The notes beneath the pieces were generated by a model that ran no database searches, had not been told where the DNA came from, and worked only from the letters and a program-made list of their open reading frames with translations. The position numbers were made by a program, and so were the translations under genes. A stretch of DNA of 64,000 nucleotides from assembly GCF_022539665.2 (NCBI RefSeq), contig NC_081332.1, positions 6,944,001 through 7,008,000 of the forward strand, in the 5' to 3' direction. This DNA is from Daphnia carinata. Lineage: Eukaryota. Numbering within the stretch: position 1 is the first letter of the stretch; each line of letters begins with the position of its first letter. Below, one piece after another: positions 11,168 to 55,114 of the stretch.

Positions 11168-11169
11168 TA

Positions 11170-22297: not shown

Positions 22298-22607
22298 GAT
22301 GAAGAGATGTTGCCGTTTACAAGAATTTTAGAAAAACATTTTGTTTTCGAGCATAATTATATGGATACTGATGCTCCTGATGATTTTGTTATTGATTTCT
22401 GAGTCTGTTAGTTTTCTAGTTGTGTTATTCGGAAATACAAAATTGTTGTTTGAGTTTGGTTGTTTTGTTTGTTTTTACTATAAATTTTTCAAGTATTAGA
22501 TAGTGGCTGGGAGGGTGCTAATTTATTATGGAATTGCCTATAGCGGCAATATTGACTTGTTAGCGGATCATTGTTAATGGACTTCACTTTCAATAACCTT
22601 GGAGATT

Positions 22608-25244
22608 TCACTTTTTGGCTGAATTACTGCTGTCTGTTTCTGGCATGCACCGACATAGGTCTTTCCAGACCATGCCATACCCGACGACGTAAGTACATGT
22701 GGTATGTTTTCCTGTACAACCGTTTAGGTGTGTCAGCTTCTTTGATAGATGGGTAGATTGATGAATTTGGTGCGCTTGGCCTTGGTGGGCTCGTTTGAAC
22801 TTGTCTTTCAGTTGACAGCTGTGCGGGTGCGGACGTTCTTATGAATGGTTGTTCGATGACAATGTCTGAATGGTAATCTGTTTCTCGTGCTGGTAGCATT
22901 GATACGAGTTCGTGTTGTTCCTCTATGCGATCGTCGCATTTTCTTGTAGGCTTCTGGTTTCTACGGATATGATTTTTAATCTTCAGATAGGGTTGCAAAT
23001 GATGAAGATCCGTAAGCATACGAGAAATAGCACAAATCCAATTGCTGAAAGACCTATTATTTTCAATTTGTCGAACCATGAGAACATATGATCTATCTGA
23101 TTATCTTGTTGTTCTGACATCACAATATCTCCAGAATTGGAATTTCCCTCTTGCAATCTGCCTACTAGGTCATTCAGGATATTTAATTGATCCATCTCCA
23201 TTGTCGCGTGTGCTGAGTGACTTTTCAGCGAGAAGTCGAAATTATTAAGGTGGAGTTCTTCAAATTCTGTAATGAGGTCTAGATTAGGCATGTTAATGGT
23301 AGGTTTCTGGCGTATCCAATCTCCTGTTGTAGAATTGCGTTCCCAGGTATGTGGATTTCCATTTAAATTTACTAACGGCGTTTTCCAAAAACAATCGGAA
23401 TATGGGTGAATTGACCATCCATCTGTTCCGATCGTACAATTCTTTCCTTCGTAAGTAAAGAACGGTTGAAATCCGCATTTTGTTTCGTTTGCTGATATAA
23501 AAATCCTTTTGGCTTCGCATTGTTGAAGTGTCATTGCTTGACCGAAGCCTTGTAATCTCGTGCAGATAGGTAAGCCTACTGCAGCTGCAGCCAAAATGCA
23601 TTGGTTTGGGCTAATATAACAGCTTGTGTTCTTTTAATTGCTGATAGTTGACAATAAACGTCTCGAATTTCTTTTGCAAGCTTGTTCTCGTGTTCCGTTT
23701 CGATGCTGATTTTATATTGGTCGTGCATTTTATTTAATTCTTATTTAATTTTGTCGTTGAGTTTTTCAATATTGTTCGGTAGACCGCTCTCCAAATTTTC
23801 ATTAATTAGTGAATCTTCAGTGTTCTGATCTATTGAAATTATCAGGGATTCTGCGGGTGGTAATTTTTGAATGTTTTTTTCCTCGATGGCCTGAATTTGA
23901 CTATATTCTGTTGTAGTCGTTGTTTAAGTTGTTGCTAATGGGGTCATTCCGCTTGTCTGTGTTAATGACTGCGGAGTCGTCGAACTTTCCTTTACTTTTG
24001 TCGTACTCGGCGTAGTCGAGCTTGGCTGATGCGTTATTGTTGTTGCTGTTGTTGTGGAACTTGTCGTTGTGGGCGTTGATGTTGTTGCTATTGTTGTGGA
24101 ACTTGTCGTCGTGGGCGTTGTTGTTGTTGTTGACATAAGCTTTGTAGTTGTAGTGGTTGTTGAGGTTGAAGTTACTTTAGCAGTTGTCGTAGATCTAATA
24201 GTAGTAGTGGTGGGCTTAGTGCTTGTTGACGTGATTATTGGTTTTGTAGTTATGGAAGGTTTTGTTGTTGTTGATGTCATACTGGGTTTGGTTGTCATTT
24301 TTTGCGTTATCGTTGCTTTGTTGGCTGCTGTGCTTGTAGCTGACTTACTTGTTGTCGTGGTTTTACCGTTGTTTTTGTCGTCGTTCCCAAGGTTGTTTTT
24401 ATTATGGGCTTTGTAGTCGTCGTAGCGCTTGTCGTTTTTGTGGATTTTTCTGTTGTGGGCGTGGCAGGGAGAGTGACCATAGTTTTGTTCTTTTCTGATT
24501 GGTTGTTGATATCCCTTTGCATTAGTGGCGGTATAGAGGGGAGTGCTTTCCCGTCCAATGGCTGTTGAGTATGTAGCGCTATAATGGCTGCCGCTGAAAG
24601 TGTCCTTATTTGATGTGGGTTGCGATATTCAAAGCTAAATTGTTGTTTTTTACTGGAGCTGTGACAATGCCCCAGGCTCACACGTCCTACTCTTTGTGTT
24701 AGACACTTCCTATCTGATGATGGTGAATATAAACCAGTTCTATCTGTTGCCAGGAGTTGTCCTGTGTGTTCGTATGTGCCCCAGATTGAGCTTGTGTTGG
24801 CGCATTCCTGGAGAACGAGCATTGTTGTGTTGGCTTTTACACAGTTGTTCGTGTTGAACGGTCTGATGGTGAAATCAGAGGTATATTCGAAAGCTTGTCC
24901 TCGTTCTGTCGTTCTGCTGCAGTTAGCAACTGTAGTTTGTGATCGCACTAATGGGTCATTACTGGTTACCAGTGTTCTAGTTCTTCTTGACATTTGGTCC
25001 AATCCGCGTCGCATTCTTCTAGTGTCATCTGTTTGTTTATTCCGTGATGAGTCAGACACTCGGTGCTTTCCCATTTTTCAACAATCCCCAGTCAATCATG
25101 TCCCAGATTATATTTCCGCTGCCGGGATTAGTTTTTAAAATTCCTCCGAATATCGACGAATTAATCGTTGTTGTTATCGCTCTTCGCTGTTCTTGTTGTA
25201 TCTCCTGCATTTCCGCTAACGTTGTATCCGGGAAGTTTTCTTGG
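22608..25244 (-). pseudogene. Element A env-like glycoprotein, 3' portion (ricin-like domain 2, Thr-rich mucin, C-terminal ectodomain, TM, tail), frameshifted
   Basis: Homologous to the B env at 42215-44810. TM IIGLSAIGFVLFLVCLRIFIIC. Tail with PSAP and CTGKHTTC..DLCRC. A signal-peptide remnant survives at 36075-36151. Confidence 0.9.
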
Positions 25245-26528
25245 AGGTCGGAGAAAAAGGCCCAGACGAAAAAGGCCCACGAAAAAGGCCCATACGAAAA
25301 AGGCCCATACAAAAAAGGACCACTTTTTTTCAATTTTATAAGTGGGCCTTTTTCTCCAGTCAATTTCCATGTTCCTAAACACTTTATATATATACTTTAT
25401 ATACTTGTTTCCAAAATGTAATTCCAACCTCCTATTCCGTGGAAGTTGGAATGTACAAAGGTTGGTAAGATGTACATAAGGTTTGCCGAGATGAAACAAT
25501 GTTAGCTTATGTACGCTAGTTAATCTTTGATTATTTATTCGGTAGCAATCTGATTTCGGATTATGTTAGTATTTATATATTGCTAATATCCCGTTAAATA
25601 AAGTTCATTTTTCACAATTTATGTTTATTTAATTACTATCGCTTCTTCTAATATAATATAAGAAATATATGTTTTTCGCACTCAGCCTTGTTTTGTCCAC
25701 CCTCTTTGATCATGCCCCCCCCCAACCCTTAGTCCATCTCCTTTATAACTTCCCTTTGTCGATACCTATGCCATAGGTAAAGACCACTGATTTGTTGTGA
25801 ATACGGAAACTGAATGAGTTCCGCGTGGCTTTTGTGGTTGCTGGGAACAAAGATATGTTAATACGAAGACTAGTTTATTATTATTAACATTTGATAAATA
25901 ATTTTTATAGGAAGAACATTACAAACTTAAACTATCGTTTGAGATAAGGACAAATAAAACTATTATAATTCAATATTGATTCTCATACCATTTATTTCCT
26001 TATCACATTTTCAATTCTTTTCACGATTACAAAGAGCCTCATAAATATTGTTACGTTGGCAATATCCGATTCGCCACTGCAGTAGCGACAACAGCGCTAG
26101 GACGGAAATCCCGCCCCAATTATGGCCGTCCATTGGAGCACCACCCTCGTCGCCGGATATAAAAGGGGCGATATTGCACTTCTGTGTGGCTTTTTGATTA
26201 ATTGGTTAGGGCAATTAGTTTGCAGTTGTGTTATTAATCCTTTTGGTGAAATACACATTATATTTTAATCTGAAGCACGACGTCTCTATCTTGGTACAAG
26301 ATCCATCCGTGACATGGTGTAGATGCAGGGTAACACCTGTTAGGCTGAGTAAGGTAAGCGCAATTGTTGTTCTTTTCGCACGGGTCTTGGGGAGTTTTTG
26401 AATAAGGAACCTGGAGGCAGGTGCTGTTTAGGGGTCTTTGGGAAGTGTGACCGGCCGGCTAGAAAGTGCCTTAAATTGCCGTGGTACAGGACCACAGACC
26501 TGGCCGATTTCCTTGATTCGCTGTTAGG

Positions 26529-34080: not shown

Positions 34081-36177
34081 TTTTACCTGCATTGGAGTAA
34101 TTTTATGTGTTTTTGTAGTCCCACAGTAGTCTGATTTTTTTTTACTTACTCTTTTTGGTGTTCACATTACTTTGTAGTAATTGATGGTTCCTTTCACTCC
34201 ATTTATTTGTTAAACTCACACAAACATCGGCACTAGAACGGCACTTTAGAAAAGCAGCGGGAACGATGTCTTGTAGGATCGAGAGTTAAGAACAGACTGA
34301 ATAGCGTGGGTGGAAAAGGACGCTAACTCGCCCACGCCATCTCTTGGCTGGCCGATGAGTATTTGTACCGCGAGCGCTAGATGGCGTGGCGGCTGCCCAA
34401 ACTTTTATTCGTAGAAAATGCTTTTATTTACTTTATCCCCTTTTATAAGTAAAGTCCATGTCGTGTAATCCCTCTCTTCCCCGTAACACACAAAAAAAAA
34501 AAAAAATTAGATTTTAGAATTCGACACAAACGCGATCGGGACGATTCGCGACTTAAGGAGGGGGATGTTACGTTGGCAATATCCGATTTGCCACTGCAGT
34601 AGCGACAACAGCGCTAGGACGGAAATCCCGCCCCAATTATGGCCGTCCATTGGAGCACCACCCTCGTCGCCGGATATAAAAGGGGCGATATTGCACTTCT
34701 GTGTGGCTTTTTGATTAATTGGTTAGGGCAATTAGTTTGCAGTTGTGTTATTAAGCCTTTTGGTGAAATACACATTATCTTTTAATCTGAAGCACGACGT
34801 CTCTATCTTGGTACAAGATCCATCCGTGACAATATATTAAAATCATAACCTACTGCTATAAATATGCCAAGCGATTACTGCTGACTGTTACCTTGGAGCG
34901 CTTTTCACCAAAGCAATAAATAGTTCGAGCAAAACTGGAATATGCAATTTGCGCAGGAACGTCTATGAGTCAAACTTAAATAGTTAATGCATGGCTTTTT
35001 TAAAGAGCAATATTTTGTGAAAGAATAACTTCACCTTTAGTCCGAAAGAACCATCTACGTCTCTGGTAATAACTCGCGTTTTTCCAGCTATTATAAATGA
35101 ATTTTTGCGTTTCGAGTCTTGTTTTCCCCCTTATGCATATTTTCAAGCAGCTATTGTTTACCTAATTATACATCATATACTACAGTGAAATATAATAAAG
35201 CTTTGCATTTGCGGTCAACAAAACTACTAACAATTACAAATCCATTTTAATTATTTTGTACCATTAAGGACTTCTTTTAATGAGTCTGTTATTAGTGAAG
35301 ACACTAAACCTTTTAAAATGAATCTAACATTTTTTTTTCTTCAAATTTTCCAAAATCATGGAAGGCATGCCAATGTATTTTTATAAAAGACTATCGCGCC
35401 ATGTCTTGCACATGAAAGAACACGAGTTTAGCTCATCTATGAGTTGGTATCAGTATTTCATACGATAAGTTTTCTTTTTTTTTTTTGATTTGGTTTAATT
35501 ACTTTATGTTCTGTCTTTTCAGTTTCTTTTTCTTAATGTTGGCTTTTCTCTTTTACTGTTGTTGTTCCTTTCTCTTTTCCTTTTCTTCAGGTTTCCAGGT
35601 CCAGTCTCACAAAACAAAGTCCTTCATGGTAGAAAACTGTGGCTCATAGACGTTCCTACGCAAATTGAATATTCCAGTTTTGCTCGAACTATTTATTGCT
35701 TTGCTGAAAAGCGCTCCAAGGTAACAGTCAGCAGTAATCGCTTGGCATATTTATAGCAGTAGGTTATGATTTTAATATATTTATTAGGCTCTTTGTAATC
35801 GTGAAAAGAATTGAAAATGTGATAAGGAAATAAATGGTATGAGAATCAATATTGAATTATAATAGTTTTATTTGTCCTTATCTCAAACGATAGCTTAAGT
35901 TTGTAATGTTCTTCCTATATAAATTATTTATCAAATGTTAATAATAATAAACTAGTCTTCGTATTAACATATCTTTGTTCCCAGCAACCACAAAAGCCAC
36001 GCGGAACTCATTCAGTTTCCGTATTTACAACAAATCAGTGGTCTTTACCTATGGCATAGGTATCGACAAAGCCTTGATGGAATGAGATATTGAATGGAGA
36101 TATTGATGGAATGATGGTTAGTAAGTGGATGAATATTATTATCAGTTCCATCTGTGAAATAAAAATTTGAAGGTTTT

Positions 36178-39100
36178 TTAGAATCTTGATACTTCATTAC
36201 GTTGCCGTAAGTTGTATCGTGGATTCGTCATTCTAGTAGGCGCAGGATAATTTGGTATAGGACCGGGAATATTTGGTGTGGTGATGTTGTGAAACTCTTC
36301 TTCTGTCGTTTGATATATACACTTTTTAGGGGGAGGCTTTCTTTCGTTGTTGCTGCTGTGTTTTCTTGGCCTTCCTGGCCCTCTTCGTACTGCCTCATTA
36401 CCCGGTCGGTTGATCTCATATGATGTCCCTTCTGTTCCTTTATTTCCTGGGACGTACAATTTTAGGCGGTTGACGTGTACTATTGATTTTAGTTTTTCAC
36501 TGTTGGCATTTTGAATCTCGTAAGTGAGATCTGAGTAATTTTTGGTAATTTTGAATGGTCTATTCCACTTGTTGATGAGTTTTCCGGCAGTTGGTGGGGC
36601 TTTTAGTAGCACAAAATCACCAATGTTGTATTTAATTGCTTTTGTTCCTTCGTCGTAATATCTTTTTTGTCTTGTCTGCGCCCGAAATAGGTGTTCCTTC
36701 GCTAGTTGCTGAGCCTTCTTCCATTGATGTGAGTACATTACACTGGTGTCTTCGTATGTCTCGTATCGTCTGTCTATTTTGATGTCGTTCGAGAGCACAG
36801 GGTGTCTTCCAAAGAATAGGAAGAATGGGGTTTGTTGTAGTGTTGATTGCTTCGCTGTGTTGTAAGCAAATGTGACGAACGGGAGATATTTGTCCCAATT
36901 TCCAGGTTCACTTCCCACGTAGCAAGCTAACATGTTACACAGGGTTCTGTTAAATCGTTATACTAATCCGTGTGTTTGGGGGTGGTATCCTGTTCTTATT
37001 TGTTTGATCTTGAACATTTTGCAAATTTCTTGGATTAAGTACGACAGGATGTTAGTCCCTTGATCTGTTAGGACTACTTCGGGGGATCCATATTTCGTAT
37101 AAATATCATAAACCAAGATTGTAGCAATTGTTTGGGCAGTGTGATCTTTCATCGGCACTAAAAAAACGAAACGACTGGTGTAATCTGATAGGACTAAAAT
37201 GTACCTATGTCCCTTTTCGCTTATTGGAACTGGACCCACAATATCCATCGCAAGTCTTTCCCACACCCTTTCAGCTGGGGACATAGGTTGCAATGGTGCT
37301 TTACTTCCTCCCATAGCTGTGCGTTTTACGCATTTTAAGCAATTTTTGATGTATTCTGTTACGTTTTGTCGCATGTGTGGAAAGAAGTATTGCTCTCGCA
37401 GTCTGGCTATTGTTTTTTTCTATTCCTAAATGTCCTGCTAACATGTGGTCATGATTTGCTTGTAAGATCCCTGTGACTGACGTCCTAGGGACTACTAGGT
37501 TTCCTTGCCTATCCGTTAATAAACCTTTTTCGTTGATTATAAAGCTGCTTCTAAATCTGTTACTTTTCTGATCTTCTTGTATATTCATCATTAATTTTTG
37601 GCAATATTTATCTGCTTGCTGTTGTTCTAGCCATTTGTCTTCTCTCCAAGACCTTTTGCTTTCACTTCCAATTTCTCTTTCCATACCGTTGCTTTCCTTT
37701 TTATGATTTTCCCTTTCAAAACTTTCACTTTCTGTCTGACTACTTTCGTTTTCTCTCTCAAGTTGTTCTTGTTTCCTTAATTTTTCAATTTGTAGTTTGT
37801 TTTTTATTCTTTCACTTTCTTTTCGATTTCTTTCAAGCTCTTTTATGACAATTTCTTTTTCCTTTGCCCTTGTTTCTACTCTTGCTAGTGGCACTATGGG
37901 AATACGGCTTAGGGTGTCAGCATTTTGGTGCGACTTCCCAGGCCGGTATCCAATGACGATGTCAAATTCTTGTAGTTTGAGTGCCCATCTAGCTAATCTT
38001 CCTGCGGGTTCGGTCTTGCTCATTAACCATTCTGAAGGTCTATGGTCGGTAAATACGGTAAATCTGCGTCCGTATAGATATGTCCTAAATACGTCAATTG
38101 CGTGGATAATTTCGTAAGCCTCTTTCTCTGTGGTTGACCACTTGGCCTCGCGATCGTTCAGATGTTTAGAGCTATACGCGATGACGACTTCCACGTCGTC
38201 TGATTCACGGGTTTCCCGTACGTCGGACTCCGCTGAATCCGCTGATTGAGGTAGAGTCTGCATCTGAGCCAAGACTGCTCCTATTCCATATCCTGAAGCA
38301 TCTGTGTAGATGATAAATTCGCGCGTGAAATATGGATACCCTAGGATAGGTCTAGTTATGAGACAGTTCTTGATACAGTCAAAAGCGTCCTTTTGTTCCT
38401 CTCCCCATTTCCACTCGGCTGATTTTCTCGTTAGCGCTGTCAGTGGGTGGGCTTTATCAGCAAAAGCCCTGATGAATTTTCTATAATAGCTAGCCAGACC
38501 TAAAAATGAGCTCAATTCTTTCACGTTTTTGGGAGCGGGGTATTCTATGATTGCTTCTAATTTTTCCGTACTCGGTGTTATTCCTTTTTTCGAAACAATG
38601 TATCCTAAATAATCTAATTCTTCCTTGAAAAATTCGCATTTCTTCCGTTTTAACTTTAGTCCTGCGTCTTTAAGAAGCTTAAACACCGCTTCTAGATGTG
38701 TCACATGTTCAGCAATATCATTACTGAACACTATGATGTCATCCAGATAAACCAATGCGAACCTGAACAATACTGATTTCAAGATGTTATTCATTGCACG
38801 TTGAAAAGTGCTTGATGCATTTGTTAATCCAAATGGCATTCTATTAAATTCGTATTGTCCAAGTTCACAGATGAAAGCGCTTTTGTGTTTGTCACTTTCT
38901 TCTATCTCGATCTGCCAGTAGCCGCTCAGTAAGTCCAATGTTGAGAAGTAAACTGATCCACTCAATGCTTCAATGGTGTCATCAACTCTTGGTAATGGAT
39001 ATTTGTCTTTTACGGTTATTTTGTTTAGTGCCCTATAATCAATACAGATACGCATTTCTTCGTCTTTTTGGGTACCATTACAATGGCTGCTGCAAATGAA

Positions 39101-40169
39101 CTGTGACTTTCTCTAGTAATTTTGTTACTTAACATTACTTCAATTTTTGTTTTTACAATATGTTTTAATGCTTCTGGAGTTCTGCGCAATCTTAGAGTAA
39201 TTGGGGCGTTGTATCCTATGTTAATGGGATGCTTTACATCAGTTGCTAGGCCCAAATCTGATTCTTTTTCTGCGAATAGGGCCCCATGTTTTTTTAATAG
39301 AATTTCAATTTTAATGCGTATCTCTTCAGAGATGTTGGTTGTTTCACCTTCGTGGCTTTGTCTGATTCGTTTTGATTTCATATTATTGTCTGATTGGGAA
39401 AAAGATTCTAGGCTGCGGTAATCTGCTTCTGTAAGGTCATTGTTATCGTTATTTTCTGGTTTTTGGTCTGGGAGGAGTGGAATGTGAATGCCTACTTTGC
39501 CAAATGTTAGGCTATATATTGGGTGTATATTTGTTCCAAAGTTGTGTTCTACCCCAAAATGGTCGTAATTGATCTGTCTGTTTCTAGTATTAATTTTTAC
39601 ATTGTTGCTTGATAAGAAGTCTAAGCCCAGGATACAAGTTTCACTTAAGTTTCCCATGATAAAGAAATGATGATTAATAACGTGATTGTCGTTAATGATA
39701 ATTGAAAATTCAAATTTTCCCATTGATTTTAGTATTTCCCCTGAAACCGTTCTAAATATTGGTGAGGGAGTGTTTTTAATTTCTTTAAGTTCTTCCCTCT
39801 TCTTTAGGTTGAAAAATATGCTGTCTGAAATTAAACTGGCTGCGGCCCTTGTATCTACTAAAGCGTATTTCTTTTCCAAAAATTCTAACGGGTAAACGTA
39901 TTAGTTTGGGTATCGCTGATTCTAAATTATTTGTTGGGGAATTATTTGGTAAGGATATCGTGTTTACTACATTGGACGGCGGTTCGGATTGTTGATACGT
40001 GCCATATCTGTCCAACATTCTCGTGGAATGCGTCCTCTTTTATTGCCATTGTAACAGATAATAATCTTATTCCCAAGGGTGTCGAGGGTGTTTGGCTGGT
40101 TTTGTCGCTGCTATGGGTATTGTTGAGGATAACCCGGGTTTTGTTGATACACTTGTTGATTGTTGTGTG
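36178..40169 (-). pseudogene. Element A pol (PR-RT-RH-IN) and 3' end of gag, frameshifted; gag truncated by B's 3' LTR
   Basis: ALVDTRA, VYLDDII, TDASGYGIGA, HDHMLAGHLG, MDIVGP, TDQGTN, ending YNLRQRNEVSRF*. Confidence 0.93.
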
Positions 40170-40372
40170 TGTAAAGTTCCTTATACCTCGTGTATTACAG
40201 TGGATTGTCGTAACAATTCCGAATTTCATGGTACAAACATGCAGTATTTATACTACTTAAGAACACACAAATTGAAGGTGAAATGGGAGGGGATACGTTC
40301 ACTTTCACTTGTGAAACGCTTGAGGGATGTAAAGGGTGTAGCTGTCTTTGGATAGCCTTTGGGCTCGTTACA
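40170..40372 (-). repeat. Internal LTR (3' LTR of element B), a diverged variant
   Basis: TGTAAAG...CGTTACA, 203 bp, same PPT as A. Clearly more diverged from the outer LTRs in its first ~120 bp. Confidence 0.93.
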
Positions 40373-40592
40373 TTCCTTCCCCTCTTCAATAATAAGAATT
40401 GGTCCACCAATTTGCTTTTTCCGTCACCGTCTACAGTTGTTGCTATGGATGAATAATAAAACTTGTTCCTTCACCAAAAACATATAAAAAAGAGTCATAT
40501 GTGTTTTTTAAAAAGATTGTTGACGTAGTGCCTCCTTTCTTTTCTGCTTTGATTCTAGCTTTTCTTTCTGCCTGGTATTTCGGCTATATTGA

Positions 40593-41165
40593 CTATAGTT
40601 TGCTCCTTCCCCCTTTGGCTGTCTTGCTGGTTTTCTCTTCTTTTAGTCGAGAGGTTACCGTTATGCTCCTGTTCCCATTTTCCGAGGAGGGTTTGCGCTC
40701 TTTTACTGCATGCTTCAGTTTCCTTTTGTTGGTCGTCTGGTTTGTTCGTTTTCGCGGAGGTTGACATTGAAGATAGTCTTCACTGTCGTATCCTATTGTA
40801 AAGTCAACACTGTAGTCACTTTCCAAATCGGGTTCTATTCCACTATACGCCATTAATCCCTCGTTTTCATCATCACTTGATTCACTACTGTCATTTACTT
40901 CCTCTTTATTTCCGTAAAAGTCGTTCTTTTCCGTTTCTATTCCATTCCATCCCATGTATTGCACTAATTTCTTGTTTTCATCCGCACTTTTCGCACTTGC
41001 TTTTGCTCTGCAGTCCGGTTGGCTATCCTCACTTTCGGTGTCGTCGATGGTGATCAGTTCGTATACTTTTTCCATTTTCCCGGGGATTATGGTACCTTTA
41101 TAGTCGTAAACTTTGGTGATGAAATTATTAGCCATGTTGGAATGAATTAATGGTACGTGGTGCAC
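40593..41165 (-). CDS. Unknown acidic/basic ORF in the post-env slot of element B
   Basis: 190-codon ORF with an acidic tract (DSSESSDDENE) and a basic NLS-like tract (PPRKR..KRKLK). Sits where A has the ankyrin ORF; no recognisable domain. Confidence 0.45.
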   Translation of the reverse strand: MHHVPLIHSNMANNFITKVYDYKGTIIPGKMEKVYELITIDDTESEDSQPDCRAKASAKSADENKKLVQYMGWNGIETEKNDFYGNKEEVNDSSESSDDENEGLMAYSGIEPDLESDYSVDFTIGYDSEDYLQCQPPRKRTNQTTNKRKLKHAVKERKPSSENGNRSITVTSRLKEEKTSKTAKGGRSKL

Positions 41166-42214: not shown

Positions 42215-45200
42215 TTACTTTTTGGCTGAATTACTGTTGTCTGTTTCTGACATGCAACGACATAGGTCTTCCCAAACCATGCCATACCCTACTACGTAAG
42301 TACATGTTGTGTGTTTTCCTGTGCAACTTTTGGGTGTGTCGGCTTCTTCGATAGATGGGTAGATTAATGAATTTGGTGCGCTTGGTCGTGGAGGGCGCAC
42401 TTGACCTTGTCTTTCCATTGTCAGTTGTGTAGGGGCGGGTGTTCTTACGAACGGTTGTTCGATGGCTATTTCTGAATGATAATTTGTTTCTCGTGCCGGT
42501 ATCATTGATGCCAGTTCGTGGTCTTCCTCTATGCCATCATCGTATCTGCTTGTAAACTTCCGGTTTCGGCGGATATGTTCTTTAATCTTCGAGATGGGGT
42601 TGCAAATGATGAAGATTCGTAAACATACAAGGAATAGCACAAATCCAATCGCTGAAAGGCCTATTATTTTCAATTTGTCGAACCATGATAACATGTGACC
42701 TATCTGATTATTTTGTTGCTCTGACATCACAATATCTCCAACAGAATTGGAATTTCCTTCTTGCATTCTGCCAACTAGGTCATTTGGAATATTTAATTTT
42801 TCCATCTCCATTGTCTCGTGTGCTGGATGACTTTTTAGCAAGAAGTCGAAATCATTTAGGTGGACTTCTTCAAATTCTGTAATGAGGTCTAGATTAGGCA
42901 TGTGGATGCTAGGTTTCTGTCGTATCCAATCTCCTGTTGTAGAGTTGTGTTCCCAGGTGTGTGGATTTCCATTCAAATTCACTAACGGTGTTTTCCAAAA
43001 ACAATCGGAAAATGGATGAATTGACCATCCATCTGTTCCGATCGTACAGTTTTTTCCTTCGTAAGTAAAGAACGGTTGAAATCCACATTTTGTTTCATTC
43101 GCTGATATAAAAATTCTTTTGGCTTCGCATTGTTGAAGTGTCATTGCTTGACCGAAGCCTTGTAGTCTCGTGCAGATTGGTAAACCTACTGCTGCTGCGG
43201 CCAAAATTCCATTTGTTTGAGCTAAGATAACAGCTTGTGATCTTGATGATGGCTGATAGTTGACAATACATATCTCGAATTTCTTTTGCGAGTTTGTTCT
43301 CGTGTTCTGTTTCAATGCTGATTTTGTATTGGTCGTGCATCTTGCTTATTTCGTATTTAATCTTTTCGTTGAATTCCTCGATGTTTTTGGGGAGACCGCT
43401 TTCTATATTTTCAGTATTTAATGATTCTTCTGTTTTCTGGTCCATTAACAGGGATTCTGCTGGCGGTAAATGTTGAATATTGTCTTCTTCTATGGCCTGA
43501 ACTTGATTTTTTTCTGTTGTAGTCGTTGTTTCTGCTGTAGCTAATGGGGTCATCCTGGCTGTCTGTGTTGATGGTTGTGGGGTCGTCGAACTCTCTTTTA
43601 CTGTCGTCGTACTTTGCGTAGTTGTGTTTGGCTGGCGCGTTGGTGTTGGAGCTGTTGTTGTGGAACTCGTAGTGGGCATAGTTGTCGTTGACGTAGGCTT
43701 AGTAGTTGTACTTGTTGTTGAAGTCGAAGTTATTTTTACAGTTGTCGTAGGCCTAGTTGTAGTGGTAGGTTTAGTGCTTGTTGACGTGATTATTGGCTTT
43801 GTAGTTGCTGGGGGTTTTGATGAAGTTGACGTCATATTTGGCTTAGTAGTAATTCTATGCGTTGTTGTGAGTTTGTTTGTTGCTGTGGTTACAATTGGCC
43901 CAATTGTAGTCGTAGTTTTTACCGTTGTTTTTGTCGTTGTTCCCAATGTTGTTTTTATTGTTGGCTTCGAAGTCGTCGTCGCGCTTGTCGTTGTTGTGGA
44001 TTTTTCTGTTGTGGGCGTGGCAGGGGGCGGGGCCAATGTTTCATTCTTTTCTGATTGGTTGTTTACTTCTCTTTGCATCAGTGGTGGAATGTATGGGAGG
44101 TTTTTCCCGTCCAATGGGTGTTGAGTGTGTAGTGCAATGATGGCTGCCGCTGAGAGCGTTTTTGGCTGGTGGGAGTTCCGATATTCGAAACTAAAATGTT
44201 GTTTTTGGCTGGAGCCGTGACAATGCCCCAGGCTCACTCGTTCTACTCTCTGTGTGAGACACTTTCTGTCTGATGAGGGTGAATGTAACCCCGTTCTATC
44301 TGTCGCCATGAGATGCCCTGTGTGTTCGAATGTGCCCCAAACTGAACTGGTTTTAGCGCATTCCTGGAGCACTAACATTGTCGTTTTGGCTTTGATACAT
44401 GTGTTTGTATTAAAAGGTCTGATGGTAAAATCAGATGTGTATTCGAAAGCTTGTCCTTGTTTTTTTGTTCTGCTGCAGTTAGCAACTGTAGTTTGTGATC
44501 GCACTAATGGGACATTACTGGTTACAAGTGTCCTTAGTTCTTCTTGACATTTGGTCCAATGCGTGTTGCATTCTTCTAGTGTCATCTGTTTGTTTACTCC
44601 GTGGTGTGTTAAACAGTTTTCATTCGGTGCTTTTCCATTCTTCAATAGTCCCCAGTCAATCATGTCCCAGATTATATTTCCGCTACCGTGGTTAGTTTTT
44701 AAAATTCCTCCGAATAGTGGCGAATTAATCGTGGTTGTGATTGCCTTTCGTTGTTCTTGCTGAATTTCTTGCATTTCTGCCAAAGTGGTGTCCGGGAAAT
44801 TTTCTAGGATGTCTGGATTGGTGTTTACAGTTTCGAAGATCCATTTTTGTGTTATGCTGTTTTTGTCCTTTCTGCACTCTGTTAGTATGATAGTTTGTTG
44901 GTTTCCGAGTGTAATACAGAGGTTTGATTCCTGTGAAATTAATTGATAATTTTGTTGATCTAGGATCCATCTTGTAGAATATTCTGAACATTTGGCCACG
45001 ATCACTCTGGCTGCTTCTCCTTCTGTGATACATATATCACCGTTCTGCACTCGGATTGTTTGGTCAACGATGTATTCGAATTCTGATCCTTGTGGAAGTG
45101 GATCATCGTTTTTGAGACGAAAGTATGAGGTTACCTGGTTGCTTTCTTCTGGTTTGTATATTATGTATATCGTTGCGTTGTAATTCACGAACCGGTCTTT

Positions 45201-46254
45201 CTCTCCGATTCTGACTGATTGTGGATATCCCATTCTGATTGGTCCCCAGGCGTACGAAATGCTGTAAAGGCGTTTGCCTGAGTCTTCAAGGGGAGTGCTG
45301 ATCAAGAACGTAACTTCCTGCTGAATGGATCGTTTCCGTTTGGTTAACTGTAGTTCCCTGTAGTCCTTACACACCGATGTATCTAGGTGAGTGTTCTGAA
45401 TGCATGTATGTATAGTTGTTTTGAACATCTCGTACAGTTTTCTCGTAGTTTCAGTTGGAAAGATTAGGTATGTGAGCGGTATGCCCATAACTTTGTAACC
45501 TTGTGGTGTTATGTCCCGATCTGGTTTTAGTTGAGGAATGAAATCTCGATCTGTCGATTGGTGTCGTAGAGACGGCTGGTGTTTTCGTGTTCTGGCAATC
45601 TTGGGAGTTCTAAACTCCTTTAAGCAGTGTTTGTATGTATGAATTGTTTGTTGTTCTGTCTACCCACACAATTGTATTCTGGTTCTGGATGAAGTGTCCT
45701 TCTTGTTGTGTTGTGTTCAAAGGTCCGAAAGGACTTTCGATTAGGTCGTCTGGTTTTTCTTGTTGTAGCGTGATTCGTTCTGCTACACAGTTGAGGGTAT
45801 GGTATTGTTTTATGGCATACCATTGCCCTTCGCCTGTCGGAGTGGCTGTAAAACTTAGTCCTGCTGGTCCGGTCTGCATGTTGTTATCGCCACACTTCTT
45901 GTCGTTCACCATTCTCCAGCATTCCAGTGGGGTAATTAGTTTAGTTTCTTGTGTATATATTGTGTCGAAAGATCCGATCCAAAATGATCCAGTTATTTTC
46001 TTTGTTTTTATCCATTGCTTGCAGGTCCAGCCTTTCCAAGAAGCTGCTGGTTTCTGTGTCGTTTTTAAAGTGTACAACGTGGATATTCTGGGTAAGTGAG
46101 CTGTATCTGATTCTTTGTTGTTGCAGTAATATGGTGCTTCTATATCTAAAATTCCTCTGGTCTTTACGTTCTTGCAGTCGCATACGGTTGAATAGATGGG
46201 ATATGTGGATGGAATGATGGTGAGTAATTGGATGAGTAATAGTATCAGTTCCAT
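42215..46254 (-). pseudogene. Element B env-like glycoprotein (~1,350 aa reconstructed): class III-like fusogen with two ricin-B-like domains and a mucin region; several frameshifts
   Basis: Signal MELILLLIQLLTII; CDC..C; GWTC..FWIG..ITPLEC..QWYA..IVW; KRKRS; beta-trefoil-like C/QxW/QxF repeats; Thr-rich tract; helix; FGQAMTLQQC..CGFQP; TM; tail. Joined from ORFs 45610-46254, 43095-45488 and 42215-43315. Confidence 0.85.
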
Positions 46255-46277: not shown

Positions 46278-48900
46278 TTAGAATCTCGATACTTCGTGGC
46301 GTTGCCGTAAGTTGTATCGTGGATTCGTCATTCTAGTGCGTGCAGGATTATCTGGTATGGGACCGGGGATATTTGGTGCGATGGTAATACAATTCTCCGC
46401 CCTTGCTGTTTGACGTATATGCGTTCTAGGGACAGGCCTTCTTACGTTGTTACTGAAGTTTGATGATCATGATTTGCTCGTAAAATTCCGTTGATTAACG
46501 GTATAGGGACTACTAATTTTCCTTGTCTATCTGTTAATAGACCTTTTTCATTGATAATAAAGTTGCTTGAGAATTTCTTATTTCTATTTTTCTGGCTATC
46601 TTCTTGTATTTTCATCATTAGTTTTTGACAATATTTATCTGCTTGCTGTAGTTCTATCCATCTGTCTTCTCTCCAAGACCTTTTACTTTCACTTCCAAAT
46701 TCTCTTTCGAAACCTACGCTCTTCTTTTGAAGACTTTCCCTCTCAAAACTTTCGCTTTCGTTTTGAATACTTCCATTTTCTTTCTCTAGGTGTTCTTGTT
46801 TCTTTAATCTTTCGATCCTTAGCTTTTCTTTTAGTCTTTCACTTTCTTTTCAAATATTTTCAAGCTCTCTTATGACGGTTCTTTTTTCCATTGCCCTTGT
46901 TTCTACTCGTGCTAGTGGCACTATGGGAATACGGCTTAGGGTGTCAGCATTTTGGTGCGACTTCCCAGGCCGGTACCCAATGACGATGTCAAATTCTTGT
47001 ATTTTTAGTGCCCGTCTAGCTAATCTTCCTGCGGGTTCTGTCTTGCTCATTAGCCATTCTAAAGGTCTATGGTCTGTAAATACGGTGAATCTGCGTCCGT
47101 ATAGATATGTCCTAAACACGTCAATTGCGTGGATGATTGCGTAAGCCTCTTTCTCTGTGGTTGACCACTTGGCTTCGCGGTCGTTCAGATGTTTAGAGCT
47201 ATACGCTATGACGACTTCCACGCCGTCTGATTCACGGGGTTCCTGTACGTCGGACTCCGCTGAATCCGCTGATCGAGGTAGAGTCTGCATCTGAGCCAAG
47301 ACTGCTCCTATACCATATTCTGAAGCATCTGTGTAGATGATAAATTCGCGCGTGAAATCTGGATACCCTAGGATAGGTCTAGTTATGAGACAGTTCTTGA
47401 TACAATCAAAGGCGTCCCTTTGTTCCTCTCCCCATTTCCACTCGGCTGGTTTTCTTGTTAGCGCTGTCAGTGGGTGGGCTTTATCAGCAAAAGCCCTGAT
47501 GAATTTTCTGTAATAGCTAGCCAAACCTAAAAATGATCTCAATTCTTTCACGTTTTTGGGAGCTGGGTATGTGATGATCGCTTCTAGCTTTTCGCATTTC
47601 TTTCTTTTCAACTTTAGTCCTGCGTCTTTAAGAAGCTTAAACACTGCTTCTAGATGTGTCACATGTTCAGCAATATCATTGCTGAACACTATGATGTCAT
47701 CCAGATAAACCAATGCAAACCTGAACAACACTGATTTCAATATGTTATTCATTGCTCGTTGGAAAGTGCATTTGTTGGTGCATTTGTTAGTCCAAATGGC
47801 ATTCTATTGAATTCGTATTGTCCAAGTTCACAGATGAAGGCGGTTTTGTGTTTGTCACTTTCTGCTATCTCGATATGCCAGTAGCCACTTAGTAAGTCCA
47901 ATGTTGAGAACTAAACTGATCCGCTCAATGCATCAATGGTGTCGTCAATTCTTGGTAATGGGTATATATCTTTTACGGTTATTTTGTTAAGTGCCCTATA
48001 GTCAATACACATACGCATCTCTCCATCTTTTTTGGGAACCATTACATTTGCTGCTGCAAATGGGCTGTGACTTTCTCTAATAATATTGTTATAAATCATT
48101 ACTTCAATTTTTGTTTTGACAATTAGTTTTAATGCTTCTGGTGTCCTGCGCAATCGTTGAGTTATTGGGGCGTTATTTCCTATGTTAATGGAATGTTTTA
48201 CATCAGTTGCTAGTCCTAAATCTGATTCTCTCTCTGCAAATAGAGCTTCGTGTTTGTTCAATAGATGTTCGATTTTAATGCGTATCTCGTCAGGGATATT
48301 AGTCACTTCACTTTCTTGGGTTTGTCCAATTCGTTTTGATTTTTGGTTAATTTCTGATTGGGAAAAAGATTCTAGGCTGCGATAATCTGCTTCTGTCAGA
48401 TCGTTGTTGTAGTTACTATCTGATGATCGATCTGGGAGGAGTGGGATATTAATACCTGCCTTGCCAAAAGTTATGCTGTATACTGGGAGTGTGTTTTTTC
48501 CAAAGCTATGTTCTTTCCCGGAATGATCGTAATTGATCTGACTGTTTTTAGTATTAATTTTTACATTGTTGCTCGATAAGAATTCTAATCCTAATATGCA
48601 AGTTTCGTTTAAGTTTTCCATAATAAAGAAATCATGCTTAATGACGTGATTGGTGTTAATGGTGATTGAAAATCCATATTTCCCTTTTGATTTTAGTATT
48701 TCTCCTGACACCGTTCTAAATATTGGCGAAGGGGAGCCTTTAACTTGTTAAAGTTCTTCATACTCCTTTAGATTAAAAAATATGTTGTCTGAAACTAAAC
48801 TGGCTGCTGCTCCTGTGTCTACTAAAGCTTTAATTTCTTTTCCAAAAATTCTAATGGTTATACGTATTAGTTTGGGTATCGCTGTTTCTAAATTTTGTGT
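46278..48900 (-). pseudogene. Element B pol (PR-RT-RH) with the integrase core deleted
   Basis: ALVDTGA, VYLDDII, TDASEYGIGA. At ~46465, ANHDH joins directly to the integrase C-terminal tail, so ~1.1 kb present in A is missing. Confidence 0.92.
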
Positions 48901-48929: not shown

Positions 48930-51438
48930 TTACTGCATTGGACGGTGGTTCGGGTTGTTGATACATGCCATATCCGTCCAACATTCTCGCGCAATGTGTA
49001 CTCTTTTATTGCACTTGTGGCAGATAATAATTCTATTTCCTAGGTTGTCAGTGGTGTTTGGTTGATTTTGTCGTGGCTGTGGGTATTGATGAGTATAGGA
49101 TGGGTTTTGATGATACACCTGTTGATTGCTATGCGGTTGAAAGTTCGGTCGATTGTAGTGTATCGGTCTGTTGTTGTACGGAGGTCTCTGGTGTGTTTGT
49201 TGGTAAGTTGGGTAATTAGGTTGCCTATACCCTGTGGAGGTACCTTCTCTTCTTGGTGAAGTATAGTTGGTGCGGTATGGGCTGTTATCTCTGCTTCGAT
49301 TGAAGTTTTGGTCACTAATGGAGCCTCTGCTATTCGGTCTATCGTGAAATCGGACTCGCGGATTTTGTGGTCTGGAGTATCGATCACTTGATCGCGAAGA
49401 AGATCTTTGTTCGTACTGATCTGCGGCTGCTATGGTTATATCGGTATCCTGTGACAATTCACGATTTTTATTAGTATTTTCCAGTTCACGTATTTTTTAT
49501 TTTAGGAATTCGATTTCTGTCTTTTGTTGTGAAAGTTCGTTATCTTGTTGTTTCTCGTGATGCGTTATCCCTGCGATTACCGCTTTTATTTCTTTCCCTT
49601 CTGCAGTCTCCTTGCTATATAGGATGCCTTCGGATATGATAAGTTGTTTACATAACTGATCAAAATCTTTGGGGTCTTCGGGCATTCTGAAATAGAGTTC
49701 AGCTCTGAATTTTGGTAAAATGCCCTTGCATCAGAATTTTGATTTTGGTATAGTCTCTCATTCTTTTTACTGTGTTTATGAGTCGGCCTTCGACGATGGT
49801 CTGATTTTTCTTCTTTGCCTTCAATGGACTCGTAGAGGCTGTTGATTCTTTAAATAAAGGCTTTGCATTTCTCTTCAGGTTTTTGTCTTAGCGTAGATAA
49901 CTTTTTTCTTTGTGCTGCTAAGTCGTATGCATCTTGGAATCTTACAATAATGGCAGTTTTCCATTCGTCAAAACCTAACTCGTCACCTTGCCCTTCTACG
50001 TAGTTTCCAAGCCATTCTAGGGCATCGCCTTTAAGTCTGTCGGAGAAGAATCGTATTTTTTGGTTGTCATCCCAGTCGTTGTTGCGTGCTACATGTTCTG
50101 CGTCCTTTAGCCATTCTTTTATTAATTTATCAGTACTTTTCCCTTTGAAAATTGGAATTGACTTTTTGTCTTCTCTCGAAAATAATTCTCCTAATGCTTT
50201 CACAATCGGTTGGGTTGTGGATGTATCGATGCTATCGCTATCCGTTGTGTCGCGGTCAATTCTCGAAGTTTCTTTGTGTGAAAGTTCACATTTTGACTTT
50301 TTCTTTGAGAGTCTGATACTTTTGTTTTAGTTGAAGGAGGTTATCGTTTTGGATCTCGATTTGGTTTTTTAGGTCGTCGTTAAGTTGTTGTAGCTTTTCG
50401 ACTTGTTCTGATTCTAGCTCGAAGTGAAGGGATTTGTCTCCTTCTGTTATTGAGTTTAGGTCGTTTATCTCACTCACTAGTTTCGTTATTTCTCCTGGTT
50501 CGTTGTAGGCGTCGAAGTCTTCGACTTCGGCGAATGTTACCTGTTGCTTTCTATATTCTTTTATTCTATTCTCCAGATACGAAATTTTTTCTTTTCGGTT
50601 TCCTGCCTGTATATTGGACTTTTGTAATTCCGTTTCGAGATTTTTATTCTTTGTAGTACTATCTATCAGACTTCTTCGTAAACCTGCTTTTTCTGCTAAG
50701 GTTTTTTCAAGGATCTCTTTTGTTTCTTTTGTTTCTCTCTGAAGTTGTTTGTTTGCTTCTAAAGCTGCTTTTATCCGTTGTTCGGCGTCTTCTAACCTCG
50801 TAACCAGTTGTTTTCTTTCAACTTCAAGTTTGCTAATTATTTCTTGCCCTTCTCTCTCAACAGCTATATTGTTTTCGTCCTTTTTTCGTAAAAGGTTTTG
50901 GTTCTCTGTTGCTGTGGCAGTTTCAAGGTTGGTTTCTAATTCGCTGATTCGATTGGCATACTTTTCAAGGGCGTTTTTGAGTGCTTCATTACTTTCTTGG
51001 AGTTGCTCAAGGGAACTACTTAGGGTGTATTTGGAACTGTTTGCCTTTTTCTTGTTGCTATCTAGCTGTTTTCGTATACCTTGTAACTCGTAGTTTAAGT
51101 CAGATGAATATTTCTTGTCAGCTATCTGCGCAAGTATTACTTCTTTTTGGAGGACTCTGATTGTACCGAATAGGAATTCTTTTTCTTTACCATGAACAAT
51201 GCTAATCTGTTGCAATATACTGTAAAGGTTTTCAGTGTTGCCACCGAGGGATTCTACGTGATTTTTAAATGGCTTTGTGGTGTTTGTAATAGTTTCTGCT
51301 GTTATACCACTTGGTGCTTGCAACGTTTGTTCTAACTATGAATATAATTGCAATGCGTTGTGTGTCTCTTTGCTAACTTCTTGTTTCTTAGATTCTATTT
51401 GTTGTATATGTGCTTTTGTCGTAATGGTCTGATGGCAT
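48930..51438 (-). pseudogene. Gag of the A/B family: long N-terminal coiled coil, capsid-like domain, Arg/Gln-rich linker, degenerate Zn knuckle
   Basis: ORFs 50286-51323 (heptad-rich), 49850-50203 (PIFKG..EWL..AE..ARNNDW..LKGDALEW) and 48930-49457 (CHKCNKRVHIAREC). Confidence 0.88.
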
Positions 51439-51582: not shown

Positions 51583-51785
51583 TGTAAAGTTTCCAAATCC
51601 CGTGTATTTGCAGTGAGTTGCAGAAACAACTCCGCCTTACATGTTACAATCATGCAGTATTTATACTACTAAAGGATACAGATATTGAAGGTAAAGTAGG
51701 AGGAGATACGTTCACTTTCACTTGTGAAACGCTTGAGGGACGTATGAGGTGTGGCTTCCTCTGGATAGCCTTTGGGCTCGTTACA
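51583..51785 (-). repeat. 5' LTR of the A/B compound
   Basis: 203 bp, TGTAAAG...CGTTACA, about 95% identical to 21305-21507 by eye. Confidence 0.95.
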
Positions 51786-53050
51786 CCTTCTTTCTTCCTC
51801 CAAAAAGTTTCCCTACCTTACCTAATTTATCTCTCTATTTTCCTCCACCTCTAAATCCTTATTTTCCTGGAGCGGTCTGTTGTACGGTTACGAACTTGAG
51901 TTTAGCAAAGTTGTCCTTCCACCTTCAGCGGTAGGGTCCCCTCTACCCGCACAAGCTTGTTGTCAACGCCTCTAAGTTTATTTTTCGGTGCCTTTCGATG
52001 AGGGTCAAAAAATTTTGAACGAGGCTTACCCGTACAGCACCACATTACCACCGAGTCGACAAATGTGGTGATCTCTTTACGTTTACTACCCAGACCTGGA
52101 TAAGGGGCAAGGCTGGCCGCCTTTCAAACAAAATAAATCCTTTTAGAGGCGCCGATGTCCCCATCGTTTTTTGCCGGACAATCCCTAGCTATAATATGAC
52201 CTCGTCGATTGTATGAATAGCACAAATTTTGTGGGGAACCTCTCAGTTTAAATCCACCACCCATCCGCGGAGCACTTTGTCCTTGATTAACTGCCATCCG
52301 TGACACCGAAGACGAAATTTGGTTGGCCAAGCGGTCTCCCAGATTTTGAAAGAGTCCTGCGTTGCTGGAGCAGCGACATTTTTCGGAGGGGCTGTGAAGA
52401 CAGGGGGCGTCGTTTGTACAATTGGCGTAAGTGTAGACGCGGCTACACTTAGCAGTGGAGGCGTCAACCCAAGTTGTGCTTTTCCTCCGCCCAACCCTCT
52501 AACCCAGCTACATACTCAATAAGCCCTTGCACATCCCCAACCGTAGAAGAAGCGTGGTATGGAGCTGACAGCGATCGGCGAAGAACGGACTGTCTGCGCA
52601 GCTGACTAAGCGGCAGCAAGTGCTTGAATAGCCTCGTTTTTTGTTGTTGTTGTTTGTTAATAATTCCGAGATATGTGATTCAGCCTCCCCGAGTTAGGCC
52701 ACTTGATTCTGTTTCACCGCTGCTACTGCTTCAGCAAACCTACTCAGCGCCAGAACCAGCTCGGCGCTGTCTGCATATCTGAGGGTACGGTTGTTTCTCC
52801 CGCAAAGACAAACACCAACTTGGGACAGTTCGTTTTTGTCGCTGGACGAACAATACGAGCTCTTGCTGTTGGATGGTGAACCTTTCCCCTCTGGTTCCGA
52901 AGGTAATACTGTGATTCGAAGCCAAAAAAGGGATCTGTGACGTCAGGATCCAAATCCGACATGCAGAACCAGTAATAACCGAAAATACGAAAATGAAGGA
53001 AAAAAACAAGAGGCAAAACAAAAAAAAAACGGAAAAAAGATGCTAAATGC
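51786..53050 (-). pseudogene. Remainder of element D: degraded gag and protease
   Basis: Degenerate knuckle CYSYNRRGHIIARDC and a protease-like VDS site. Collinear with the D pol to the left of 21305. Confidence 0.65.
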
Positions 53051-54699
53051 AACTAAGGTCACGACCAAAAAAATATTCTATACGGAGAATAACAAAACTC
53101 CACCAAAAAAACCGCCGTCAAAACCCAAGAAAGTGAAAAAATCGACAATGGTCTCTTAGCACAATGCGAAAACAAAATCCTTTCCTTGCCGAGCGAGAAA
53201 AAATATGAAAGAAAAAACCCTTCCACTCCGCCAATACGATCGCTCAAAAGAATACAGAAATAAGAATATCACGCGTGACTAAAAAAATGTGTGGAGCGTC
53301 GAAAAATAAAAGAAAGAGAAAAAAAGAAACGATTGCAAAAGACAAAGGAGGGAGGGATAATAGAGCGCATAAAAAAGAATAAATTCAAGTTCAATGCAAA
53401 TAAAAAAAATAGTTGGAAATTGAATGTTTAGTAGCCTAGGGCTATAGGTGAGGAAGGGGTTAAACTACCCGCCCCGATATCCTACCCTTGGGCAAAGACC
53501 TCGCGTGGGGTTGTAATCAACTCCCAGACAGCATTCTCAAGGAGCAAACCGCGACGAACCGCGACTGGCGACGTCAAGGTAAGCCGAAATTTTGCGAGTT
53601 TGATCGAACATCGGATATCGTGCAGCTCCCAGAGATATGACGGCAAACAGGCGTGTTTCTCAAAGCTGGTTTTAAGCTTTTCTATTTTGATAAACATCGT
53701 CTGCTGGTTAGCATGTACAGCAACATCCAGAAAAAAGGCACCCCCTTCCCCCCCCCCCTACGGTCGCCGAAAATCTAACAATATATCGTTAGCGCTAGAT
53801 GGCATTTTTTTGGCAGCATATAACTAAAAATAATCATACGATTTCTTTTGGCTCGACGACAAAATTCGAGACCGTTGCGAAGTTTTTTTGCTGCGAGCAA
53901 ATTAAAGAAAACGAACCAAATTAAGAAATTTTGAGCAGCACCAATTGTCTGAATCGTAGCCTTTTCCCCGCTTCACTTTTTTTCTCAATTTTCCGTTGTC
54001 GTATTTTTGCTTGCAGCAAATATTAGAAAAACTTCTTGGTCACAGGCGATTTGAGTTCTCTTCAAAGAAATTCAATGAATGTCTCATCTTTGTTTTTTTC
54101 AATCTTACTTTGACCAAATATCTGTCTTTATAGATTGCGAAACGCAAATTTTCGCCCGGGAGGCTATGCAAGGAACCATCAGCCATATTCGTTACATTCA
54201 TCTCTTCTTTCCCACGCTTGCAACCCTTTTTCCTTCTTCCGCCAACAGGTCATCTGCCGATAACTCTGGCCTTCAACGTTCCTTCTACTTGGCCTTCAAA
54301 CTTGTCAAATCTTCATATAGGTGTTACACTCACACGCAGAATATCAATTCCGTTTTGGGACACCCAAATAATCCGAAACGACCTTGCTCCTTCGTAGAAA
54401 TGTTGCCCTTTTTTCAGATGGCAGTCAGTCTTCAGTAAGTCTTCAGCCAGTTCCATTGCAGTCGTCATCACAGTCAGTCTCCTTTCAGAGTTACAGTCAC
54501 AGTAAGTCTCATATCGTCAACTGTTAACTTGATCTTTGTAAACACATTAACCACTGTGCAAGAATAAAGCTCACCATCACACTATACCACTATTCCCGTT
54601 ATTCAATATTTAAAAGTAAGGAAACATTTCCCATCCTTACAATAATGACTGTATGCAGAAGCTAATTTAGAAAATTACCAAGATTCTTTAAACAATATT

Positions 54700-55114
54700 T
54701 CGTTATTACAGGAAGTTAAATATATTAAAAATTCGAAAATAGTTTTTTACATTATGCTAAAAATTACATCGAAATACGTATCCAAGATTTTGAGATATTT
54801 TAATTTTAGTTTCTTCATAAAAATGGGAGCTTTCTTATTCGAAAATTCACGTTTCAAATGCCCCGACGCCCTGCTTCAATTGCCCAGAATGATTGGCAAT
54901 TGAAACATTTGAAGTATTTTCGGTTTTTTTACCTTTTAACATCTGTTCAAAAATTTCCGAACCCCCCCCCCCCCAAAAAAAAAAAAACAAAAAAACATGT
55001 CTGGATCTTGATAACTAGCTCCAGAACTATATATTTTTTTAACTTAGTTTGACAATTGTCTTACTCGGCGGCAACAAAAATTATTTTTGTGTTCCAACCA
55101 CTACCTCTCTCCCA
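54700..55114 (-). mobile_element. Diverged terminal fragment related to the 8711-10015 MITE family
   Basis: The reverse complement reads TA|TGGGAGAGAGGTAGTGGTTGGAACACAAAAATAATTTTTGTT..., aligning to 8711 onward, including the CAATTG repeats. Confidence 0.75.

Follow-up and report, generated by a model that had tools for sequence, protein, structure and literature searches.

An envelope (env) gene of a Ty3/gypsy retrotransposon lies on the minus strand of a 64,000-nucleotide stretch of the Daphnia carinata genome (assembly GCF_022539665.2, contig NC_081332.1, positions 6,944,001 to 7,008,000), here called the window. Structural modelling confirms a class III fusogen fold, of the type found in herpesvirus glycoprotein B (gB), for the N-terminal piece of the protein. 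An insert of about 680 residues separates the fusion module from the central helix; it comprises a dibasic site, a pair of ricin-B-type beta-trefoils and a threonine-rich stalk. The reading favoured here, with moderate confidence, is that the intact envelope is a gB-type class III fusogen whose inserted trefoil pair, borne on its stalk and cut at the dibasic site, becomes a cell-attachment head; the attachment role is deduced from the architecture.

Class III fold of the envelope protein

The gene starts with an ATG at 46254, ends at a stop at 42215 and is spread over chiefly three open frames (P0001, P0002 and P0003). The initial annotation had spoken of frameshifts; comparison with close natural relatives places three frame changes, near 45615, 45528 and 43245. 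A hidden Markov model (HMM) of five N-terminal parts retrieved 420 proteins at E<=0.001, the best 150 of which were taken further, and P0001 was modelled with AlphaFold2 from an alignment of 74 proteins from the HMM search (mean predicted local distance difference test score, pLDDT, 85.5). Compared with 48,161 representative chains, the model matches 11 at Z of at least 5, all of them class III fusogens, and the next row stands at 4.1. Herpesvirus gB leads this set, with chain 2gum from HSV-1 (herpes simplex virus 1) at Z 9.8 (root-mean-square deviation, rmsd, 4.0; 132 residues aligned) and the human cytomegalovirus (HCMV) chain 5cxf at Z 9.4 (rmsd 3.9; 158 aligned). Chandipura G, rabies G, thogotovirus GP and baculovirus GP64 share the fusion-domain fold at Z 6.2-8.8. 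Foldseek gives the same class III outcome, and a cellular non-fusogenic membrane protein is ruled out, every match at this level being a class III fusogen.

The model shows an elongated beta-sheet fusion domain within a pleckstrin homology (PH)-like domain. The motifs singled out by the initial annotation (GWTC, SFWIGS, ITPLEC, QWYA and NTIVW) are all present in the minus-strand translation of P0001, and the two aromatic fusion loops proposed from them lie at strand turns: SFWIGS where strands 97-115 and 122-131 meet in a hairpin turn, QWYA directly before strand 174-191. Loop 1 has an aromatic residue in 43 of 43 aligned sequences and loop 2 in 42 of 43; two control stretches have one in 3 of 43 each.

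The C-terminal half is best seen in P0029, a full-length natural relative that is 38% identical to the window env in its N part and 35% in its C part. Its model has a 56-residue helix (800-855), the strands of a beta-rich crown (872-958) and a transmembrane (TM) segment (1037-1063). Its top matches in the PDB are gB at E 1e-11, with TM-scores low at 0.13-0.15, and all 36 PDB rows listed are gB; in BFVD it matches mainly negative-strand RNA virus glycoproteins, plus gB and entomopoxvirus proteins. The corresponding parts noticed earlier in the window are all there: the start of the long helix in P0002, and in P0003 the FG-x4-L-x2-C segment (FG-QAMT-L-QQ-C) and the hydrophobic TM segment. By analogy with gB, and from the collagen repeat of the relatives described below, the protein would form a homotrimer through its central coiled coil.

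Sequence searches see little of this fold. Pfam finds in the three env pieces only ricin-B and a sub-threshold Baculo_F match, with no class III family; the Baculo_F match surrounds the TM segment and was dismissed as an artefact of it. Neither the Monjiviricetes fusion protein family PF24664 nor PF00974 matches any of the three pieces, sequence searches of the PDB, run with P0001 and with the stretch that holds the trefoils, return chance matches only, and a word-limited search with the C part of P0029 recovers P0029 alone. Among the relatives, the insert-free P0096 exceeds the PF24664 cut-off (31.8 vs 27 bits), and two others match PF00974 weakly (E 0.006, below cut-off). No trefoil or collagen insert is known from vesiculovirus or lyssavirus G, thogotovirus GP, GP64 or the PF24664 proteins.

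Family and origin

Branchiopoda errantiviruses with an HSV/gB-type ENV have been catalogued by Chary and Hayashi (eLife 2026, PMC13524379), so that the class III assignment is right yet already published for the family. Residues 80-239 of P0001 agree with the domain I-II row of Dcar_errantivirus_6 at 149 of 160 positions when counted by eye (about 93%), which places the window env in the Branchiopoda C2 group. The two share the gag-pol-env order of Ty3/gypsy elements and the two aromatic fusion loops; the window copy differs in being defective. PMC13524379 reports a C2c bridge pattern common to the Branchiopoda and tardigrade elements, and argues that the association of gB-type env with errantiviruses is ancient and metazoan-wide and does not reflect recent captures. 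The cysteines of the window env are near-invariant across its aligned relatives. One insert-free relative is a tardigrade protein, in line with the shared C2c group. The search with P0001 found 29 relatives; the 27 that are named all come from Daphnia magna or D. sinensis.

Could the envelope instead be a rhabdovirus-like G captured independently by a Gypsy lineage, as the initial annotation had it? Vesiculovirus G (Z 8.8) and rabies G (Z 7.6) are among the class III matches, and the BFVD rows of P0029 and the weak PF00974 matches lean the same way. The fusion domain scores close to both gB and Chandipura G (Z 9.8 vs 8.8), so that a specific affinity to rhabdovirus G is not shown, and all the listed PDB rows of the full-length relative are gB. 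A viral-contig scan with alignment A1 gave 55 pattern matches, none of them a relative. With the family catalogued as HSV/gB-type, its C2c pattern common to tardigrade elements and an insert-free tardigrade protein among the relatives, independent capture is left unsupported, and the rhabdovirus reading is improbable. The broader inference of that annotation, that a Gypsy element carries a class III fusogen interrupted by a large insert, is borne out by the P0001 model, by Foldseek, by the gB matches of P0029 and by the Pfam ricin-B match.

A trefoil insert at one site

In the window env, 705 residues separate the fusion module from the helix, which agrees with the roughly 700 inserted residues first noted; the insert, left unidentified at that time, turns out to be structured. 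P0002 matches PF00652 (ricin-B trefoil) at 58 bits against a cut-off of 29, in two stretches, and 176 residues with 79 threonines follow. The P0029 model contains two whole trefoils (303-444 and 484-656; Z up to 15.6). The insert begins beyond the stretch that aligns with gB residues 121-353 and precedes the 56-residue helix. Cysteine pairs and QxW-type repeats accompany the beta-trefoil fold.

The spacer between fusion module and helix falls into three classes among 52 proteins with both halves: 18-62 residues in 19 insert-free proteins, 134-277 in 17 and 376-705 in 16. Of the short-insert proteins 10 of 14 match PF00652 at E<=0.01, of the insert-free ones 0 of 17; a profile built from the short inserts gives one or two copies per protein. 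The relatives thus form a graded series of zero, one or two trefoils, all at one site. Supplement 4 of PMC13524379 comments on Cdub_3 as having an "extra domain" and on Dcar_7 as having "extra domains", without naming them; by eye, Cdub_3 resembles the one-trefoil P0074 and Dcar_7 the two-trefoil P0072. Apart from a tick species name, the main text and text supplements hold no ricin, lectin, trefoil or mucin wording, the figures lying outside this check. The insert had therefore been noticed in that text but not identified.

Trees were built separately for N and C parts from 42 of the 52 proteins plus the window piece, by quick searches with midpoint rooting; ten fragments or partial gene models were left out (P0002, P0009, P0025, P0026, P0030, P0032, P0038, P0089, P0120 and P0143). 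In both, all 26 insert carriers and one nested insert-free protein, P0047, form a single branch, with Shimodaira-Hasegawa-like approximate likelihood ratio test (SH-aLRT) values of 92 and 94. The insert state changes twice on the trees, as against 13.5-13.6 times in shuffles, and the simplest reading of these sequences would be one gain and one loss.

Is the insert only a neutral passenger, host sequence taken up where a loop tolerates it? In its favour, the corresponding site in herpesvirus gB, the linker between domains II and III with the furin site, is flexible and variable (PMC12240383), and P0047 does without the insert. Between the window's two env copies, the ratio of nonsynonymous to synonymous substitution rates (dN/dS) stands at 0.11 in trefoil 2 and 0.12 in the crown; the mucin has 0.36 and the tail 0.31. 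Purifying selection acts on trefoil 2. Among aligned rows, 39-42 of 39-45 and 16-18 of 18-20 retain the trefoil cysteines, and the insert persists throughout a clade in which fusion modules share 29-68% identity with that of the window. The selection result largely refutes a passenger without a role, which we regard as very improbable.

Mixed atlas matches, under 0.9, name no donor for the trefoils, and no sequencing run was listed as a match to the trefoil stretch. Database entries from Daphnia under the name "Ricin B lectin domain-containing protein" match env in many cases, and these are likely retrotransposon env fragments and not host lectins.

A predicted cleavage site and the stalk

A loose basic motif within 60 residues of the end of the fusion module is seen in 15 of 15 long-insert proteins (7.7 expected from shuffles), in 2 of 14 with short inserts (6.2 expected) and in 7 of 17 without an insert (7.8 expected). 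In gB, too, the fusion module is followed by a linker with a basic site (PMC12240383), the long helix, the crown and the TM segment, in this order. The env differs from gB in its 8-11% identity, its shorter fusion module and the trefoils and stalk in its linker. Near-invariant cysteines are found both in the N-terminal strand and in the core, and this strand is modelled with pLDDT 92-94 in full-length P0029, against 62-65 in the P0001 piece alone. A strand that is confident only in the full-length model, together with these cysteines, fits a two-chain protomer held by putative disulfides.

The stalk of the window env is mucin-like. Among 59 matches to the trefoil stretch, 5 contain collagen (PF01391), and Gly-X-Y runs directly follow trefoil 2 in 6 of 312 collected proteins. 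Four loci came from a metagenome scan. Locus L002, 43-53% identical to the window env pieces, is one open frame of 1345 residues that runs from the end of the fusion module through the basic site, the trefoil pair and 92 Gly-X-Y triplets to the central helix, the crown and the TM segment; L001 has the whole N part and 93 triplets, then a stop ahead of the helix. Collagen rises 0.286 nm per residue, which makes the 92-triplet rod about 80 nm long. Because a rod of this length is hard to square with the fusion module packing on the core, the chain would be cut before the trefoils. Collagen requires three chains, and the class III trimer would supply them.

Collectins, ficolins and C1q offer an analogy, in that they too have a trimeric collagen stalk with a binding head, as predicted for L001 and L002. 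The env head differs in standing N-terminal to the collagen, in being a beta-trefoil pair and in having its stalk rooted in the central helix of the fusogen. A literature search, for the most part without subscription papers, turned up no account of a retrotransposon gB-type env with a trefoil, mucin or collagen insert and no report of a collagen triple helix within a viral-type fusogen. The module of trefoils and stalk, the stepwise series that it forms and its collagen variant appear to be undescribed.

A proposed entry mechanism

According to PMC13524379, HSV needs gD, gH and gL in addition to gB for entry, and how errantiviruses with gB enter cells is not known; no such partner gene is evident in the element studied here. 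As a named, separable and selected domain pair at a defined site, the trefoils are candidates, in one large clade, for the attachment function that is missing, and the stalked module bears on the question of entry by gB-only elements. In the mechanism proposed, the intact env would be secreted and assembled into a trimer, as in gB, and its chain would be cut at KRKR. Conserved disulfides would hold the N-terminal fusion module on the C-terminal core, and the trefoil pair, now the free end of the membrane-anchored fragment, would bind a ligand on the host surface, more likely a protein or an unusual glycan than galactose. Membrane fusion would follow through the usual class III refolding. With three frame changes in env and the integrase core gone, the window copy is itself incapable of this.

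A stepwise history is put forward more tentatively, its parts taken together falling a little short of an even chance. One clade of cladoceran retrotransposons would have built up an unadorned gB-type fusogen into an entry apparatus encoded by a single gene: a beta-trefoil would have been gained once in the domain II-III linker, duplicated, and freed by a new cleavage site. The trefoils would have been raised on an interchangeable stalk, mucin here and in sister envs an 80-nm collagen that continues the central coiled coil of the trimer. The outcome would be a collectin-like spike on a class III fusogen, taking over the receptor-binding job done in herpesviruses by separate proteins. The natural series (zero, one or two trefoils; no stalk, mucin or collagen; with or without a basic site) shows in any case what the linker of a class III fusogen tolerates.

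Several points weigh against the attachment head and its history. The canonical R-type galactose/N-acetylgalactosamine site consists of an aspartate plus an aromatic residue, and this pair is found in none of 5 window motifs and none of 81 subdomain-like motifs of 25 relatives, a count that had no positive control. The strict motif [KR]x[KR]R has a low share even among long-insert proteins (7 of 15, with 1 of 14 short-insert and 1 of 17 insert-free), and the window site, KRKR at 45341-45330, has K and not R at P4. The 60-residue span for the loose motif was chosen after one of 45 residues had given 12 of 15 long-insert proteins, and the counts come from related sequences and are hence not independent. 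Tree support stays under SH-aLRT 95, from quick searches with a midpoint root. The dN/dS values come from one pair of defective copies and, of the trefoils, cover trefoil 2 alone. The full-length P0029 model has a predicted template modelling score (pTM) of 0.43 and does not fix the placement of the trefoils.

Because the canonical sugar-site residues are absent, the trefoils are filed here as a ricin-B fold and not as lectins, and their ligand may not be a sugar. They resemble R-type lectin domains (the GalNAc-transferase lectin domain, B chains of type II ribosome-inactivating proteins, HA33) in the tandem beta-trefoil, the Z scores of 14-15.6 and the PF00652 match, and differ in lacking the aspartate and aromatic site residues and a toxin A chain.

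The lack of sugar-site residues would also suit a shield or clamp, in which trefoils and stalk cover the fusion module and keep it in its prefusion form or conceal it from the defences of the host, as mucin domains do in some viral glycoproteins. The mucin here is the less constrained part. The whole insert can be lost, as the nested P0047 indicates, and the short-insert forms, whose stalks measure 8-79 residues and which for the most part lack a basic site, imply that the first trefoil sat near the core. Against such a cover stand the collagen rod, which would put the trefoils far off the core and fits reach better, and the occupation of one slot by two chemically unrelated stalks. On this evidence a shield is the main rival but the less likely of the two, and we keep to the attachment head as the preferred reading.

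The env gene and its host element

Table 1. Env gene parts, host element and second env copy (positions in the window)
Feature	Position	Strand	Remarks
Env gene of Ty3/gypsy element, HSV/gB-type class III fusogen	42215..46254	-	three frame changes
Signal-peptide-like hydrophobic N-terminus	46189..46254	-	end approximate; begins at ATG 46254
Class III fusion domain and part of flanking PH-like domain (P0001 97-229)	45646..46044	-	from model and structure matches
Fusion loop 1, SFWIGS	45970..45987	-	
Fusion loop 2, QWYA	45814..45825	-	
Short third-frame stretch between two frame changes	45528..45615	-	positions approximate; P0004 217-244 matches 45613-45530 at 82%
Dibasic KRKR, predicted proprotein-convertase site, insert start	45330..45341	-	
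Beta-trefoil 1, ricin-B type	44817..45290	-	boundaries approximate; first subdomain without Cys pair; PF00652
Beta-trefoil 2, ricin-B type	44169..44666	-	boundaries approximate; dN/dS 0.11
Thr-rich mucin-like stalk	43497..44024	-	79 Thr in 176 residues; collagen in same position in sister envs
Long central helix, start (gB domain III equivalent)	43251..43358	-	third frame change near 43245
Remaining central helix, beta-rich crown with FG-x4-L-x2-C, C-terminal arm	42686..43243	-	
Transmembrane segment	42596..42673	-	
Cytoplasmic tail, Cys/His-rich end	42215..42595	-	L001 and L002 end alike
Fragmented pol (reverse transcriptase, RNase H)	46442..48747	-	integrase core absent relative to sister copy
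Fragmented gag	48930..51335	-	Ty3 capsid PF19259 over cut-off
Long terminal repeat (LTR) downstream of env	40170..40372	-	TG...CA, purine tract adjoining; about 203 bases
LTR upstream of gag	51583..51785	-	about 203 bases
Second env copy, C-terminal two thirds (trefoil 2, mucin, crown, TM)	22588..25249	-	83% identical

The element has the layout of a Ty3/gypsy retrotransposon, with PF19259, reverse transcriptase, RNase H, LTRs and env downstream, and in a sister copy reverse transcriptase, RNase H, then integrase follow in order (39112-36178). Measured against that copy (36096-40179), about 1.1 kb with the integrase core is gone. The element copy is defective because of this loss and the three frame changes in env, and it lacks the intact gag, pol and env that PMC13524379 requires for inclusion. 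No target-site duplication was identified by eye. In blastn the upstream LTR (51583-51790) is 93.8% identical to a far LTR (21305-21514) and 82% to the near one (40170-40379). These identities suggest a nested or chimeric tandem of the form LTR-gag-pol-env-LTR-pol-env-LTR.

The end of the env tail (42215-42330, minus strand) has the conserved pattern C-x-G-x-H-x-x-C...W-E-D-L-C-R-C, also found in L001 and L002; this motif may serve metal binding or acylation. An ankyrin-repeat frame lies between the env of the sister copy and its downstream LTR (21776-22327, minus strand), and L001 has one downstream of env (5369-7024), 33% identical to the window's. Near the window env only a 27-residue end is left (40642-40722). 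This frame looks like an accessory gene of the element family. The N-terminus of gag (50286-51335, minus strand) is a 349-residue frame, apparently rich in coiled coil, without a Pfam match.

A Gypsy element with an F-type env (26049-34831, plus strand; Baculo_F E 8e-25; 266-base LTRs 98.9% identical) separates the two halves of the sister gB-type copy, so that both env types occur within 20 kb. It is enclosed by a pair of 295-base inverted repeats, 98.6% complementary (25754-26048 and 35777-36071), probably a DNA transposon that received the insertion. A Tc1/mariner-like element spans 11167-13629, where 580-base inverted repeats (98.6%) flank a transposase frame at 12135-12983. Degraded retrotransposon fragments at 19329-20404 and 52124-52498 (both minus strand) look by eye like reverse transcriptase/RNase H and zinc-knuckle sequence. 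Old dispersed inverted repeats pair 8709-9164 with 54648-55116 at 72% and 31317-31471 with 63744-63898 at 70%.

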